Positions 2,897 through 59,319 of a DNA stretch of 64,000 nucleotides are shown here, in pieces. The notes under the pieces were generated by a model. That model saw only the letters and a program-made list of their open reading frames with translations, had not been told where the DNA came from and searched no databases. Numbering within the stretch: the first letter of the stretch is position 1; the number at the start of each line of letters is the position of its first letter. Source of the DNA: Candidatus Terrybacteria bacterium RIFCSPHIGHO2_01_FULL_43_35 (GTDB taxonomy: Bacteria > Patescibacteriota > Minisyncoccia > Terrybacterales > GWB1-40-14); NCBI GenBank assembly GCA_001822815.1, contig MHSR01000008.1, forward strand, positions 49,602 to 113,601. The letters run 5' to 3'. The position numbers were made by a program, and so were the translations under genes.

Positions 2897-4762
2897 ATGA
2901 CTTTCAAAGAAATAAGAGAAAAATTTATAAAATTTTTTGAAAGGCATGGCCATACAGCTGTGCCATCTTCTTCTTTGATTCCCGACGATCCTTCGGTTTT
3001 ATTGACTACGGCAGGTATGCAGCAGTTTAAGCCCTATTGGGGGGAACTTGATCCGGAGCAAACTATACATCCCAGCATAGGCAAACCAGTTGGTAAAAAT
3101 GCCGTTTCTATACAGAAATCCTTTAGGACTTCGGATATAGATGAAGTGGGAGATGAAAGCCACCTTACTTTCTTTGAAATGATGGGCAATTTTAGCTTCG
3201 GCGGCTACTTTAAGAAAGAGGCTATTGCTTATGCGCATGAGTTTCTTACCAAAGAATTGGGTCTTAAAATTTCATATGTAACCGTATTTGAAGGAAATGA
3301 AGCTATGGGCGTTCCTGAAGATAAAGAGTCAGCTGCCATATGGAAAGAGCTTGATCCTGCTATAAGGATTGAAAAACAAGGCATGGAAAACGTTTTTTGG
3401 GGTCCTACAGGCGCTTCTGGTCCTTGTGGTCCCACCACGGAGGTTTATTTTAAAAATGCCCAGGGACAGGATATAGAAACGTGGAATTTAGTTTTTAACG
3501 AATATTTTTATCCTGGTTCACGCGAAGAATTATTAAACAGCGCGCCAGGAAAAAAGTTGGAAAAATTAAAAACACCAGGAGTTGATACGGGTATGGGGCT
3601 TGAACGGATAGCAATGATTGTTCAAGAAAAGAAAAATATTTTTGAAACTGATCTATTTGAACCTATATTAAGAGCCGTTATTGAAATTCAAGGAGATAAG
3701 CCAATTCAGCAGATTAGGTTAATCGCAGATCATTTGAGGGCAGTAACTTTTTTGATTGCCGATGGTCTTGAGCCAGGAATAGATGAGCGTAATTATATTC
3801 CGAGACGTTTAATACGAGATGCTATGACGGCTCATTATTTGTATATAGGGGCAGGTATAGATATCAATTTCTGTGTTGATCCTGTAAATACAATTATTGA
3901 TATATATAGAAAAGATTATCCGTATCTTTTAGAAAAGCGAGAAGAAATTATTTCGATAATACGAAAGGAGACAGAAAATTTTTCTAAGGTTTTAAAATTG
4001 GTTGGTAATGTTTTGGATCTAAAAAAACAATATATTAGTTTTAGTACAGAAAAGAAATGGCCCGAGGTTAGATCGGGAACAGATATAATTGATTTAGACG
4101 GCAAAATTTTATTCGATATACGTCAGTCTATAGGAGTAAGCTGGTCGCAAATGAAAATGGTTATAGAAAAAGAAGGATTTGAATTAGGCGATAAAGTGCT
4201 TACTGAATATGATGAGGCGTATAAAAAACACCAGGAATTGTCTCGTGCCGGTCAGGAAAGAAAATTCGGCGGACACGGGCTTCTTTTAGATACCGGCGAA
4301 CTCAAAGCCGCCAACGAGGAAGAGCTCAAAAAAGTTACCCGTCTTCATACCGCAACGCATATGCTCCAGGCGGCTTTGCGCCAGATTTTGGGTCAGGAGA
4401 TTTATCAGATGGGATCGGATATAACCGTTGAAAGACTTAGATTTGACTTCACTTTCTCAAGAAAAGTCACTCCCGAAGAATTATTACAAGTAGAATCTCT
4501 AGTGCGACGAAAGGTTAGTGAGAATTTGCCGGTTAACAAAACAGAAATGCCAATTGAAGATGCTAAAAATTCAGGAGCCCTTACTGTTGCAACAGCAAAA
4601 TATCCCCCGATGGTTAAAGTTTACTCTATAGATGATTTTTCAAGAGAAGTTTGCGGCGGACCCCATGTTTCCCGCACATCCGAAGTGGGTGAGTTCAAAA
4701 TAATTAAGGAAGAAGCTTCTTCAACCGGAATTCGCAGAATTAGAGCTGTAGTTTCGCCATAA
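2897..4762 (+). CDS. alaS: Alanyl-tRNA synthetase, short form (621 aa)
   Basis: AlaRS class-II N-terminus ('FKEIREKFIKFFERHGH...LLTTAGMQQFKPYW'). Editing-domain motifs 'HTATHML' (HxxxH) and 'CGGPHV' (CxxxH) are present. The C-terminal C-Ala domain appears absent. Confidence 0.85.
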   Translation: MTFKEIREKFIKFFERHGHTAVPSSSLIPDDPSVLLTTAGMQQFKPYWGELDPEQTIHPSIGKPVGKNAVSIQKSFRTSDIDEVGDESHLTFFEMMGNFSFGGYFKKEAIAYAHEFLTKELGLKISYVTVFEGNEAMGVPEDKESAAIWKELDPAIRIEKQGMENVFWGPTGASGPCGPTTEVYFKNAQGQDIETWNLVFNEYFYPGSREELLNSAPGKKLEKLKTPGVDTGMGLERIAMIVQEKKNIFETDLFEPILRAVIEIQGDKPIQQIRLIADHLRAVTFLIADGLEPGIDERNYIPRRLIRDAMTAHYLYIGAGIDINFCVDPVNTIIDIYRKDYPYLLEKREEIISIIRKETENFSKVLKLVGNVLDLKKQYISFSTEKKWPEVRSGTDIIDLDGKILFDIRQSIGVSWSQMKMVIEKEGFELGDKVLTEYDEAYKKHQELSRAGQERKFGGHGLLLDTGELKAANEEELKKVTRLHTATHMLQAALRQILGQEIYQMGSDITVERLRFDFTFSRKVTPEELLQVESLVRRKVSENLPVNKTEMPIEDAKNSGALTVATAKYPPMVKVYSIDDFSREVCGGPHVSRTSEVGEFKIIKEEASSTGIRRIRAVVSP

Positions 4763-23791: not shown

Positions 23792-23936
23792 ATGCCAGGT
23801 AGTGAAAGTTCGACCGTTCTCCGAAGACGAACAACCGATTTCGTGATACTTGGCTCTACCATTAATTCGTTTAACATTAATCATTAACTAGAAATTCGGC
23901 AGCACATTATAAGTCGAACTTCTACTACCTGGTATG
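23792..23936 (+). promoter_or_regulatory. Structured ~145-nt element immediately upstream of, and overlapping, the mreB-paralog start codon (copy 1 of 2)
   Basis: 5' 'atgccaggtagtgaaag' pairs with 3' 'cttctactacctggtATG'. Inner stem is 'gttcgac/gtcgaac'. A related element lies at 25054..25217. Confidence 0.4.
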
Positions 23937-25053: not shown

Positions 25054-25217
25054 ATGCCAGGTAGTGAAAACGCGACCATTCGTTTCCGTCAGCTGACGGA
25101 GACGAATAAAAACCATCTGGCCACAATCACCGTCAGTATTAAAATTCAATACGTAATACTTAAGAATAGCGCAATTTTTATCGAAATAATGTAGTCGCAT
25201 TTCTACTACCTGGTATG
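25054..25217 (+). promoter_or_regulatory. Structured ~164-nt element immediately upstream of, and overlapping, the mreC start codon (copy 2 of 2)
   Basis: 5' 'atgccaggtagtgaaaa' pairs with 3' 'tttctactacctggtATG'. Inner stem 'gcgac/gtcgc' is compensatory relative to copy 1. Flanked by 'ggtatg' direct repeats. Confidence 0.4.
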
Positions 25218-28298: not shown

Positions 28299-28601
28299 TG
28301 ATTTGACAGATCTTTCTTCTAGAAATGACCTTTCCGTTTGTTATCAACTCTTGACACATTTCTTGGTTTAGATACTATTGAGTATTAAGACCGCGCATTA
28401 GCGCGGCATTAAATTTAAATTAAGTTTATCCCTCGCTTTCGCCAGAGTCTTAATGACGTATAAGGACATTCGGCGCGGCTCGTGGGTAATATAAAAGGTA
28501 ATCCTTCGCTTCGCTCAGGTCTTCGACTCTTAAAGAGTCTCAGACTCGAGGAGATGCACGTGGTTGTATCCTCTCGTGTGGCTCGAGGACAACCACGGCA
28601 C

Positions 28602-40126: not shown

Positions 40127-40801
40127 ATGACCAGCGTTTTGGGGCTTCAGCCTCTTAAAATCAAAGATATCGTCATTGTAGCGGTTTTGGGCGAAATAGT
40201 CGGTGCTTTTGGGTTTGCGATAGTAAACAATCAGCCGGCCCTAGAGGGCATTTTCACTAAAATATTGCCACAATTCGTTTTGTTGCCGCTTTTTGTTTTG
40301 GGTGTGCCGATGGCCGCCGTTGTGGCTCTGCTGTTCGCCTATTTTTTAGCCAAGAAAATAAAACCAATATTTTTCCAGATGGGCAAGTTTGCCGCGGTGG
40401 GGTTTTCTAATACCGCAATTGATTGGGGGATCTTCAATCTAATTTTGGCTCCTATCGGTTTTTCCAGCGCCGGACAAGTTATTTATGCTTTAGGCAAGGG
40501 TATTTCTTTTGCCTTTGCAACGCTCAACTCTTTCGTATGGAATAAATTCTGGTCTTTTGAGAAGAAAGAAACCAAGGGAGTCGGCAAGGAGGCCGCAAAA
40601 TTTTACGCCTTTACGGCAGTGGGTCTTGTCATCAATGTTACAGTTGCTCTTATTGTCCGAAACATAGGTCCGCATTCTGATTTATGGGGCGGGGTGGTTT
40701 CTCCAGCCTTGGCCACGGCCGTTTCCATGATTTGGGATTTTTTCGCCTACAAATTTTTCGTTTTTAAATCTGGGCAGCCGGCCGTTGAGCCGGAGAAGTA
40801 A
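40127..40801 (+). CDS. GtrA-family membrane protein (polysaccharide-precursor flippase-like) with an N-terminal extension
   Basis: 'MGKFAAVGFSNTAIDWGIFNLIL' is the canonical GtrA start of the 4-TM domain, located after ~85 extra residues. Confidence 0.65.
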   Translation: MTSVLGLQPLKIKDIVIVAVLGEIVGAFGFAIVNNQPALEGIFTKILPQFVLLPLFVLGVPMAAVVALLFAYFLAKKIKPIFFQMGKFAAVGFSNTAIDWGIFNLILAPIGFSSAGQVIYALGKGISFAFATLNSFVWNKFWSFEKKETKGVGKEAAKFYAFTAVGLVINVTVALIVRNIGPHSDLWGGVVSPALATAVSMIWDFFAYKFFVFKSGQPAVEPEK

Positions 40802-42725: not shown

Positions 42726-42796
42726 TGCGGGATCGTCTAATGGTAGGACATGAGCCTTTGAAGCTCAGTATCTTGGTTCGAATCCAAGTCCCGCAG
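42726..42796 (+). tRNA. tRNA-Gln (anticodon UUG)
   Basis: Hand-folded cloverleaf. Acceptor 'tgcggga/tcccgca' with a U1:A72 pair, as in bacterial tRNA-Gln. D-stem 'gtct/ggac'. Anticodon stem 'tgagc/gctca' with loop 'ctTTGaa'. T-stem 'cttgg/ccaag' with loop 'ttcgaat'. Discriminator G; no encoded CCA. Confidence 0.8.
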
Positions 42797-42893
42797 CGCT
42801 GGCTATAAAATATATTATTAGTTTTCGGATCCAAGCCCCGCAGTCACTTACATTTTTTATCGACCAATTGAAGACGCGTAATCCGATTGCTAA

Positions 42894-43556: not shown

Positions 43557-43979
43557 TTCTTCAGTCCTTTTTTCAAAGAATTATCGTACTGTTAGACAAT
43601 AACAGAACTTAGTGTAAGGATCAAGTGATTTATATTTCTGCAAGGGAATAGTCAGATGATGTCTTTTTGTATCTTATCTGCACTAAAAAAGCCACACAAG
43701 AAAGTATCATTTTTGCGGCACTTTTTGTTAGAATAAAATTGCTCGAGACACGTCGTTTGTGATAAGATTTAAATAGCTAAGAATCCTTACCGGGTTTGAC
43801 AGGTTGTCGGTTCTAGCTCGAGGACGCCAGCTGATAGAAAATCTTTCTCGCTCTTAGCGAGATTAGATTTTCATCATCCCGAGGATCCACGCGACGAGGG
43901 GCTACCATTCGTGATAGGCCATTCGGCTCTGAGAGCCTCAGACTCGATGAGTTATCCCGCTCGAGGTGCTTTAAGATTT

Positions 43980-57625: not shown

Positions 57626-58563
57626 GAAGGCTGATCAATATAATTGAAGTTTTGGTTGTAGCAGGTATTTTAGGCGCCATAATATATTTTTATGGCGACA
57701 AAGTGCAAATAGCCCTGCGTGTGCTAGAGCAGCGTTATTTGCCATGTCAGGCGCCCATACAATATTCACTAGGCGATTTCAGTCCAAAATTTGGTTTAAC
57801 TCAAACAGATTTTATACACGCAATTTCCGAGGCGGAAAACATTTGGGAAGAACCAATAAGCAAAGATCTTTTTGAATACAACGATGGCGGTGCGCTTAAA
57901 ATAAATTTTGTTTATGATTATCGCCAGGAAGCCACAGACCGTCTCAAAAAAATGGGGCTCACCATCAACAGCGATAAGGCCACTTACGATGCGTTGGTGA
58001 TAAGACATGATGCCTTGGTGACCCAATACAACCGGGATAAGGCTCAATATGATAAGGCCGTAAGTTTATTTGAGCAGCGCAAAAAAGCATATGAGAAAGA
58101 GGTTGATTATTGGAACAGCAAGGGCGGTGCGCCAGCGGCAGTATATGATCGTTTGAACCAAGAAAAAATAGAATTAGATATGCAAGCCGCTCAGCTTAAT
58201 CAAACGCAAGATAAAATAAATTCTTTGGTTGATGACATAAATGCGTTAGTGAGCGTTATTAACCGTCTTGTTTCGGAACTTAATCTTGATGTAGATAAAT
58301 ATAATACCGTAAGCGGCCAGCGCGGCGAGGAATTCCAGGAGGGGATATATAAAATTGATGCCACGGGGCAAGAGATCGATATTTATGAGTTTGATAATCA
58401 AACGCAGCTTGTGCGTGTTCTGACTCATGAAATGGGCCACGCTTTGGATTTAGAGCACTCCGATGATCCAACGGCCATAATGTATCGTCTAAATCAGGCT
58501 TCAAACGAGAAACTATCCCAAAGCGACATAGACTCGCTAAAAGCCAAATGCGGAGTTAAATAG
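57622..58563 (+). CDS. Membrane-anchored matrixin-like zinc metalloprotease (metzincin)
   Basis: 'VLTHEMGHALDLEHSDDPTAIMYR' gives the HExxHxxGxxH zinc site (with D for G) plus a Met-turn; N-terminal TM and a coiled-coil middle. Confidence 0.65.
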   Translation: MRRLINIIEVLVVAGILGAIIYFYGDKVQIALRVLEQRYLPCQAPIQYSLGDFSPKFGLTQTDFIHAISEAENIWEEPISKDLFEYNDGGALKINFVYDYRQEATDRLKKMGLTINSDKATYDALVIRHDALVTQYNRDKAQYDKAVSLFEQRKKAYEKEVDYWNSKGGAPAAVYDRLNQEKIELDMQAAQLNQTQDKINSLVDDINALVSVINRLVSELNLDVDKYNTVSGQRGEEFQEGIYKIDATGQEIDIYEFDNQTQLVRVLTHEMGHALDLEHSDDPTAIMYRLNQASNEKLSQSDIDSLKAKCGVK

Positions 58564-58627
58564 ACGAATGGGCGGGTTTTGCGTTCTCGCCGCCACTATT
58601 TTAGTTCCACGGTCAAGCCGTGTTAAT

Positions 58628-58656
58628 TTGACTTTTAGTAAATTTTGTAGTATAAT
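58628..58656 (+). promoter_or_regulatory. Consensus sigma70-type promoter TTGACT-17-TATAAT
   Basis: 'tTTGACTtttagtaaattttgtagTATAATg', directly upstream of a GC-rich segment with no convincing ORF. Confidence 0.5.
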
Positions 58657-58662
58657 GATATT

Positions 58663-59025
58663 ATAGAATATTGAAAAAATTCACGTCCCTCCGGCCGCGT
58701 TTCTTGATGTTTAAAGCAACGCAGCTGGAGGGAAGTGACCACGAAAGCTGGTCAGGTTGCGTAAAGGTCGGCGCAACACCAAGCCTCCCTTCAAGATTCA
58801 CTCATATGCGAATCTTCGGAGCAATAGGGCTGGGCCTGACTATCGTGGTCCTGGAGACTCTCGTGCCGAAGATCTTTGCGGCACTTGAAGAGACCCTCCT
58901 TAAGTTCTTTGTGCTTGCCCAAATGGTCATAGACAATGTCCAGGCAAGTTTAATGCGCGGTGGCCTTTAGGTCACCAGCCCCAAGAAGTAGGTCGCTTAA
59001 CCAAGCGGCCTTTTCTAGTTTTTGC
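58663..59025 (+). ncRNA. Candidate non-coding RNA (~360 nt, GC-rich, highly hairpinned), identity unknown
   Basis: Starts ~7 nt after a perfect -10. Visibly GC-rich against AT-rich flanks. Only a compositionally odd TTG-initiated 99-aa ORF without RBS is present. Ends with hairpin 'ggtggcc ttta ggtcacc' and a T-rich stretch. Confidence 0.3.
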
Positions 59026-59055
59026 ATTTTAAATTCTATTCTTTATAATGAATAT

Positions 59056-59319
59056 ATGTTTCATTTAGTACGTAAACATAAACATAATATATTTCCTCTC
59101 GTGGTTATGGTTTTGCTGGTTCTGTTTTTCTGGATATTGGCCATGTATTGGGCGCTGCACGCCAAAAACTTTTCAGAGACTACGCCGGAAATTGCTTGTG
59201 TTCAAGATTCCGACTGCTTATGCAGGACTTTTTCAGACGGTAAAATATTACCCGGGCAAGGGTTTTCTCCAGGATGCGATTTTCAAATTAACCGCTGTTT
59301 CCCTTGCGAATATTATTAA
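59056..59319 (+). CDS. Hypothetical small membrane-anchored Cys-rich protein (~87 aa)
   Basis: Internal ATG of listed ORF 58960. TM 'IFPLVVMVLLVLFFWILAMYWAL', then a region with 6 Cys. Confidence 0.3.
   Translation: MFHLVRKHKHNIFPLVVMVLLVLFFWILAMYWALHAKNFSETTPEIACVQDSDCLCRTFSDGKILPGQGFSPGCDFQINRCFPCEYY

Follow-up and report, generated by a model that had tools for sequence, protein, structure and literature searches.

Several described kinds of RNA come close to the locus reported here. In the translational attenuators of ermC and cat, segments of the leader pair either as 1:2 plus 3:4 or as 2:3. The mRNAs of type I toxins (hok, tisB, and aapA1 and aapA3 of Helicobacter pylori) have structured 5′ untranslated regions (5′ UTRs) with successive sequences that resemble an anti-Shine–Dalgarno (anti-SD) sequence. 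Further relatives in kind are the three-way-junction riboswitches (such as those for purine and thiamine pyrophosphate), the orphan riboswitch candidates, and the dual-function RNAs, such as Staphylococcus aureus RNAIII with delta-haemolysin and Bacillus subtilis SR1 with SR1P. The locus lies in the genome of Candidatus Terrybacteria bacterium RIFCSPHIGHO2_01_FULL_43_35, at positions 58628–59025 of a 64,000-nucleotide (nt) stretch of contig MHSR01000008.1; this whole stretch is called the window, and its numbering is used throughout. An initial annotation had proposed a novel structured noncoding RNA (ncRNA) here, without a credible open reading frame (ORF). We conclude that the locus is a small-protein gene with a probable cis-regulatory 5′ leader, and neither a novel ncRNA gene nor a new kind of system.

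In the arrangement that we consider probable, the locus is a monocistronic gene for a small protein whose transcript, about 350 nt long, comprises a structured leader of 143 nt, an ORF of 54 codons, and a terminator, with the leader acting as a cis-regulator of translation initiation. The leader may regulate initiation, and perhaps mRNA stability as well. By analogy, it would work most like the attenuators of the ermC type and the leaders of type I toxin mRNAs. It lacks a defining feature of each, in that it has no leader peptide and that no antitoxin RNA was found with it in the scan for promoters.

The coding sequence (CDS) extends on the forward strand, on which all features of the locus lie, from ATG 58806 to a TAG that ends at 58970. 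Homologues and the codon pattern assign its product of 54 amino acids (aa; MRIFGAIGLGLTIVVLETLVPKIFAALEETLLKFFVLAQMVIDNVQASLMRGGL) to an unannotated family of small proteins of Parcubacteria. An exhaustive phmmer search against 1.84 billion cluster representatives, with a 99-aa ORF of the same frame as the query, returned 51 proteins at E ≤ 1e-3, and a search with the family profile brought this to 77 clusters; those with names are from Terrybacteria, Taylorbacteria, the “Parcubacteria group”, and Paceibacterota. Nearly all of the phmmer matches align from query residue 46 onward, which is the peptide that starts at ATG 58806; most are 47–60 aa long (family range, 47–72 aa) and align from their own first residue. 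In the trimmed family alignment of 48 sequences (the window peptide and 47 relatives), the same Met start is found in all, and the consensus reads M[RK]IF.A[IV]GLG[LI].I[IV].L..L[MV]P.[VI]F..[LF]E.TLL.FF. Identity within the family is 40–60%, with invariant residues, across divergent Parcubacteria with a GC content of 27 to 58%.

For comparison at the nucleotide level, 12 distinct homologous loci were obtained from a metagenome scan and contig look-ups; this is a small sample, and its members are cited below by their labels (L013, L015, and so on) where they need to be told apart. In a codon-substitution test, differences at codon positions 1/2/3 amount to 0.45/0.22/0.62 and the median ratio of nonsynonymous to synonymous substitution rates (dN/dS) is about 0.19, a coding-type pattern for the 54-aa ORF. 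With a conserved protein family that varies in this way, the claim that no credible ORF exists is overturned, and with it that of a stand-alone ncRNA. The locus is very probably a protein-coding mRNA.

The structure predicted by AlphaFold2 from the family alignment is one continuous helix, residues 3–51 (pLDDT 93.8). The N-terminal half of the protein is hydrophobic and the remainder amphipathic; it is probably membrane-associated. Searches of Pfam, NCBIfam, PDB sequences, PADLOC, and PHROG with the window protein gave no family at E ≤ 1, and when all 48 members were compared with the family libraries, only scattered matches of single members were obtained (E ≥ 0.004). No relatives were found in viral contigs or phage genomes, and no PADLOC, phage, or defence link was found. 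The literature that we searched contained no description of the protein family or of the leader motif.

Longer readings of this frame have been deposited. A word-indexed search with the 99-aa ORF recovered nothing but its own counterpart in the database, annotated as a hypothetical protein of 87 aa from “Candidatus Terrybacteria bacterium RIFCSPLOWO2_01_FULL_4x”. The GenBank model (A3A80_01630; 87 aa) starts at ATG 58707, a codon in the apical loop of a leader hairpin (P2, described below). We reject both the 87-aa and the 99-aa readings as artefacts of a leader frame that happens to be open in this genome back to TTG 58671, because the homologues share the Met at 58806, the N-terminal extensions of over-long gene calls among the relatives are unrelated, and in five of the 12 loci an in-frame stop lies 4–7 codons 5′ of the conserved ATG. 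Judged from these comparisons, the deposited 87-aa model is probably 33 codons too long, and the conserved start is ATG 58806. That the true product is nevertheless one of the longer ORFs, or that the transcript is a stand-alone structured ncRNA gene without any protein, is extremely unlikely. The strong folding of the transcript, the GenBank call, and the frame open to the TTG speak for such readings; conservation confined to the 54-aa part, the unrelated extensions and in-frame stops, the coding-type substitutions, and a CDS whose structure in the window is at chance level all speak against them.

The gene has the signals of an independent transcription unit. A sigma-70-type promoter, TTGACT-17-TATAAT at 58628–58656, scores 11/12 against the consensus, which makes it the top-ranking site of the 2.5-kb scan, in agreement with the textbook promoter claimed at first; from its position, transcription is predicted to start at about 58663. 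At the other end, a terminator scan found an intrinsic terminator (58990–59022) with a 9-bp stem, five G-C pairs, and a T-rich tail: the hairpin occupies 58990–59011 and is followed by TTTTCTAGTTTTT, the T-rich end that had been noticed. A promoter with a match of at least 9/12 is present in nine of the 12 homologous loci, where the predicted 5′ UTRs measure 142–186 nt, and hairpin-plus-U-run terminators follow the stop codon in nine as well. The small gene is free-standing, with neighbours that vary between clades and mostly with a promoter and a terminator of its own. Going by these predicted signals, the boundaries of the transcription unit are conserved among homologues. Among relatives of the M10 peptidase encoded upstream (GTDB genomes and contigs) none has the element beside the peptidase, so that the gene is not syntenic. 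The ORFs of 99–100 aa found near such peptidases proved to be unrelated membrane proteins and not homologues of the small gene. The GC content of 0.50–0.55 over 58700–58950 is indeed high against the immediate flanks (0.25–0.43), as had been claimed, but neighbouring coding regions are equally GC-rich (0.54–0.59), so this level is not exceptional.

ATG 58806 had been doubted for want of an SD sequence. Across the window, an SD-like motif lies within 20 nt upstream of only 4 of the 54 long ORFs (at least 150 aa), a proportion equal to the 8% expected by chance. Translation initiation in this genome thus seems to be largely SD-independent or leaderless, and in such an SD-poor genome the lack of an SD sequence is no argument against this start codon.

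The folding of the transcript is concentrated in the leader. Compared with dinucleotide shuffles, the 360-nt transcript has z = −6.76 on the forward strand and −4.49 on the reverse strand. The leader folded alone (58663–58805; 143 nt) has a minimum free energy (MFE) of −55 kcal/mol and z = −6.28, with 0 of 200 shuffles as stable, whereas the coding part folded alone (58806–58970) has z = −0.38 (64 of 200 shuffles) and is not beyond chance; the remarkable structure of this sequence is therefore its 5′ UTR. The early claim of structure holds for the unit as a whole, but the part with most of the hairpins then listed is at chance level. Three of these hairpins exist as perfect stems: aagattc/gaatctt (58793–58799/58810–58816), gtgccg/cggcac (58863–58868/58879–58884), and cttgcc/ggcaag (58914–58919/58943–58948). 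The fourth, ggtggcc/ggtcacc (58959–58965/58970–58976), is not perfect, as it contains one G·U pair. In the homologues, the leaders have z values of −1.4 to −6.1, and the coding regions average about −2.4 against dinucleotide shuffles. Synonymous-codon shuffles of the CDS give a mean z of −1.98, negative in 11 of the 12 loci, with no excess in the window copy (+0.30). Over-structured coding regions are seen, for example, in L021, L015, L020, and L029. A hairpin across codons 18–29 recurs in 10 of the 12 loci. Among the 11 loci with the Phe-Phe pair, 10 encode it as UUC UUU and one, L031, as UUC UUC.

The leader matches no Rfam family, the 6S RNA and riboswitch classes included. Rfam 15 gave no match for the region 58500–59150 at gathering thresholds, and at E ≤ 10 only chance-level matches appeared, the best being WsnRNA46 with 21.8 bits against a gathering score of 65.3. 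ARAGORN found only a tRNA-Gln (42726–42797) and no tmRNA in the window. In line with the lack of hallmark motifs noted in the initial annotation, there was no match to RNase P RNA, signal recognition particle RNA, or tmRNA.

The architecture of the leader is common to the 12 loci. After a 5′ end of about 20 nt that is predicted to be single-stranded comes hairpin H1 (58686–58733), which is predicted in all folds. In H1, a pyrimidine tract, Y1 (UCCCUCCGGC, 58686–58695), pairs with the R side (GCUGGAGGGA, 58724–58733) and encloses the variable hairpin P2 (58696–58723), in whose apical loop ATG 58707 lies; the H1/P2 helix has about 20 bp. The purine tract R (GGAGGGAAG, 58727–58735), with a nearly invariant GGAGGG core, is complementary both to Y1 and to a second pyrimidine tract, Y2 (CCUCCCUUC, 58784–58792), which is its antiparallel complement. 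Between R and Y2 stand hairpin P3 (UGACCA/UGGUCA, 58736–58754), with the loop UUAG in six of the 12 loci, and hairpin P4 (GUUGCG/CGCAAC, 58756–58777), with GUCG in its loop (58767–58770); the GUC of this loop is invariant, and GUCG is found in 11 of the 12 loci. Y2 has a fixed position directly after P4 and 13–16 nt before the AUG, from which it is separated by an AU-rich spacer of 10–17 nt (about 50 nt in L015 and L019). Finally, a local fold, AAGAUUC/GAAUCUU (58793–58816), holds the start codon in its loop, as had been noted.

A plain MAFFT alignment of the leaders misaligned the hairpins and was replaced by a hand-made structural alignment and by alignments fitted to a covariance model (CM). 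P3 has standard pairs in 61/61 cells, and all six of its pairs are changed on both sides somewhere among the 12 loci; P4 is paired in 79/79 cells, with double changes in seven of its eight pairs. The two hairpins together are thus 100% paired, with compensatory changes in 13 of 14 pairs. H1, counted in the hand-made alignment over ten pairs (seven of Y1:R and three at the base of P2), is 82% paired with double changes in 7/10 pairs; the corresponding values from the CM-fitted alignment are 94% and 15/18. For H1, P3, and P4 taken together, the hand-made alignment is 92.5% paired, compensatory changes occur in 20 of the 24 pairs, and 0 of 500 shuffles reach the observed values, while slid controls are 47–53% paired.

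Models trained on part of the data agree with this. When a CM was derived from the window sequence only, L021, L022, L029, and L020 aligned to it in one common register. A second CM, from whose training set the window sequence was excluded, detects the window leader with a score of 78 bits (E about 6e-14). In the alignment fitted to it (five sequences, the window's included), pairing reaches 95.9% and 26/30 pairs have double changes, figures to be read as those of a model-fitted alignment. On this comparative evidence, the leader is a conserved RNA element whose helices are supported by compensatory changes, and a conserved function of it is likely. The idea of a novel structured RNA therefore survives for the 143-nt leader, which is conserved, covarying, and absent from Rfam, but not for a stand-alone ncRNA gene. 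An additional CM match in L022 (2609–2734) was rejected as a repeated palindromic element and not counted as a second leader. It belongs to palindromic units (actcattgag...ctcaatgagtggacagttcctgtaagg) that are repeated two to three times at 2560–2790 of L022, in a 475-nt intergenic region upstream of the homologous gene, and that look like REP (repetitive extragenic palindromic) repeats.

The tract R could pair with Y2 as well as with Y1. The six core pairs of R:Y2 are standard in 72/72 cells, and the whole R:Y2 helix is 88.5% paired. Where R differs, with GGAGAG in L028, AGAGAG in L032, and GGAGGUU in L015, compensatory changes are found in Y2, and in L028 and L032 R covaries with both Y1 and Y2. 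In a swap test, cognate duplexes were more stable than non-cognate ones, for R:Y1 (p about 0.009) and for R:Y2 (p about 0.035). If R paired with Y2, the helix would complete a three-way junction whose other arms are P3 and P4.

The start codon itself is masked in most loci. For the window gene, the region from −20 to +24 folds with an MFE of −10.9 kcal/mol, compared with a mean of −4.1 (standard deviation 3.2) for 54 other ORFs of the window. A local hairpin encloses the start codon in eight of the 12 loci (−7.6 to −11.5 kcal/mol over the same region); the sequences that form it differ between clades, several of which use the 3′ portion of Y2 for it.

Other roles of these tracts were considered and set aside. 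As Y2 in the window is also the exact parallel complement of R, a Hoogsteen triplex was considered; it was rejected since, by eye, an antiparallel duplex of Watson–Crick and G·U pairs fits at least equally well in every locus and is clearly the better fit in L015, L022, and L032. R as a functional SD sequence is rejected, as some 70 nt separate it from the AUG and SD sequences are not enriched in the genome. Leader-peptide attenuation is rejected for lack of a conserved upstream ORF (uORF): uORFs that start with ATG are found at differing positions, in differing frames, and with differing lengths, and the motif contains none in L020 and L032. A long-range duplex of Y2 with the CDS is not conserved against synonymous shuffles (mean z = −0.45), and the start-codon hairpin is better supported.

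Set against the ermC and cat attenuators, the leader is alike in that Y1 holds R, R could pair with Y2, and Y2 helps to mask the start. It differs in having no conserved leader-peptide ORF over segment 1 and in the non-involvement of an SD sequence; the masked element here is the AUG and the first codons, and not an SD sequence. The mechanism that we infer for the leader is of this kind and is put forward tentatively, as a translational switch of R, Y1, and Y2. In the default fold, which would be thermodynamically dominant, Y1 would hold R, and Y2 and the spacer would fold back over the first codons, hiding the AUG and keeping translation low. A factor or ligand bound to the P3/P4 junction, or cleavage or processing of the H1/P2 helix, are candidate triggers that might free R. 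R could then capture Y2 and close the three-way junction, and this closure would loosen the start-codon hairpin, so that translation would rise.

Several points weigh against this switch. H1 is favoured over R:Y2 by 2–29 kcal/mol in every homologue, with a probability of about 1 in the ensemble. Removal of Y1 in silico gives an ambiguous result: the fold flips in only 2–4 of 10 loci, since the mRNA has a number of other purine and pyrimidine tracts. R, Y1, and Y2 are sequences of low complexity with a high background of pairing (slid controls, 48–55%; column shuffles, 81/104), and the covariation of R with Y2 rests mainly on three or four loci. The start-codon hairpin is absent or weak in four of the 12 loci. 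The leaders of L015 and L019 deviate, with a duplicated R in addition to the long spacer. Few nucleotides are conserved outside the helices, fewer than in typical metabolite aptamers. The alignment of the 12 leaders was made by hand and leans towards structure, and the transcription start and the 3′ end are predictions.

Some of the same observations fit the main rival, in which the 5′ UTR is a passive, stabilising structure that protects a highly expressed small mRNA and perhaps damps its translation without any switching, the complementarity of Y2 and R being a by-product of repeated tracts. The dominance of H1 in the ensembles of all homologues is what it would lead one to expect, and the further CUCC and GGAG tracts would explain why truncation in silico gives no clean switch. 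The over-structured CDS of most homologues points to a general selection for compact and stable mRNA. Against it stand the fixed position of Y2 after P4, the way in which Y2 tracks the changes of R in L028 and L032, and the swap test for R:Y2. The conserved GUC(G) loop and the covarying P3 and P4 also exceed what a stabiliser needs, and the predicted 5′ end is a single strand and not a terminal protective stem. We regard a purely passive leader as possible but somewhat doubtful.

The three-way junction of R:Y2, P3, and P4 could also be the aptamer of a new metabolite or ion riboswitch that controls a small membrane protein. Like the three-way-junction riboswitches and orphan candidates, the leader has covarying helices in a 5′ UTR, here around a junction, and a competing helix (Y1:R) that would exclude the junction; its loops contain conserved nucleotides, and the element always stands upstream of one gene family. 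It is unlike them in that few unpaired nucleotides, in particular few of the junction, are conserved, that no family in Rfam is similar (no match above chance level at E ≤ 10), and that the competitor is located 5′ of the putative aptamer and exceeds it greatly in stability. As the regulated gene gives no hint of a ligand either, we consider a riboswitch unlikely.

The masked start codon and the nature of the protein bring type I toxin–antitoxin systems to mind, and the transcript might be a toxin mRNA of a similar system, translationally inert until processed. It has much in common with such mRNAs: a 54-aa product (below 60 aa) with a single predicted hydrophobic and amphipathic helix, a long structured leader, a masked initiation region, CU-rich tracts able to pair with a GGAGG-like tract, a strong promoter, and an over-structured mRNA throughout the family. 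One of the 48 family members also gives a faint match to TisB_toxin (E = 0.067). It differs in several respects. A scan for promoters on the reverse strand found no such site inside 58663–59022, two weak promoter-like sites upstream of the small gene on that strand point away from it, and no complementary small RNA was seen on it over the gene. The gene is present as a single copy in the window, with the lack of PADLOC and phage links already mentioned. The protein is conserved across a bacterial class, and its broad identity of 40–60% with invariant residues looks like that of a housekeeping protein and not of a fast-evolving toxin. Furthermore, 70 nt separate the GGAGG tract from the AUG here, and SD sequences are hardly used in this genome. 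A toxin mRNA is thus very unlikely.

Similarly, the locus may be compared with dual-function RNAs of the RNAIII/hld or SR1/SR1P kind, which, besides encoding a peptide, would use C/U-rich tracts to reach purine-rich targets in trans. Shared features are a structured transcript of a few hundred nucleotides, a short amphipathic or hydrophobic helical peptide, and C-rich tracts, of which those of the CCUCC type resemble the seed motifs of such RNAs; the selected structure across the whole mRNA, CDS included, in most homologues, the strong promoter, and the clean terminator would also suit an RNA of this kind. On the other side, an SD-poor genome offers few plausible targets, Y1 is buried in H1, and the structure is concentrated in a leader that is coupled to the start of the ORF. 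No target was identified, there is no evidence of one in trans, and no observation requires a function in trans. We judge a dual-function RNA to be highly improbable.

A more far-reaching reading would combine several of these elements. The leader could represent a new class of bistable regulatory RNA specific to Parcubacteria and the candidate phyla radiation (CPR), either with a three-way junction that senses a ligand or factor or as a switch activated by processing, gating a near-universal and unrecognised small membrane protein in bacteria whose initiation seldom depends on SD sequences, with an mRNA that is perhaps dual-functional too. We offer this as a speculative and rather unlikely extension.

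Several observations outside the small gene were made in passing. Some ORFs of the window have a TATAAT-like box directly before their ATG, for example those at 40127 and 40045. The gene that follows the small gene (ATG 59056; region 59021–59319) encodes a protein of 87 aa that contains numerous Cys residues and is hydrophobic in an N-terminal segment; a promoter-like site, TTTGCA-17-TATAAT, ends at 59049, 7 nt before its ATG, and its mRNA is probably leaderless. The same 14-nt sequence, TTCTACTACCTGGT, precedes the ORFs at ATG 23934 and ATG 25215 (23914–23933 and 25195–25214), which lie about 1.3 kb apart and may be tandem paralogues or have a common upstream motif. Another motif, CTCAGACTCG, is common to the sequences upstream of the ORFs at 28554 and 43947 (about 28534–28553 and 43927–43946). 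In L013, two tRNA-like sequences (GGGCTCGTAGCTCAGCTGG... and GGGCCTGTAGTTCAGTGG...) were noticed by eye at about 4520–4690, immediately before the ORF that itself lies in front of the peptidase homologue.

The biology of CPR bacteria is for the most part poorly known, and annotations of their genomes routinely overlook small proteins. The present analysis corrects one such annotation, replacing the 87-aa call in GenBank with the conserved 54-aa product, and defines a family of small proteins across Parcubacteria that is missing from Pfam and NCBIfam. To our knowledge, very few regulatory RNAs have been described from the CPR part of the tree. The leader is a well-delimited candidate for a cis-regulatory RNA motif with covarying helices in these bacteria. 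Given the scarcity of such RNAs and the mostly SD-independent initiation that this genome seems to use, the motif may offer a tractable entry to translational control in the CPR.

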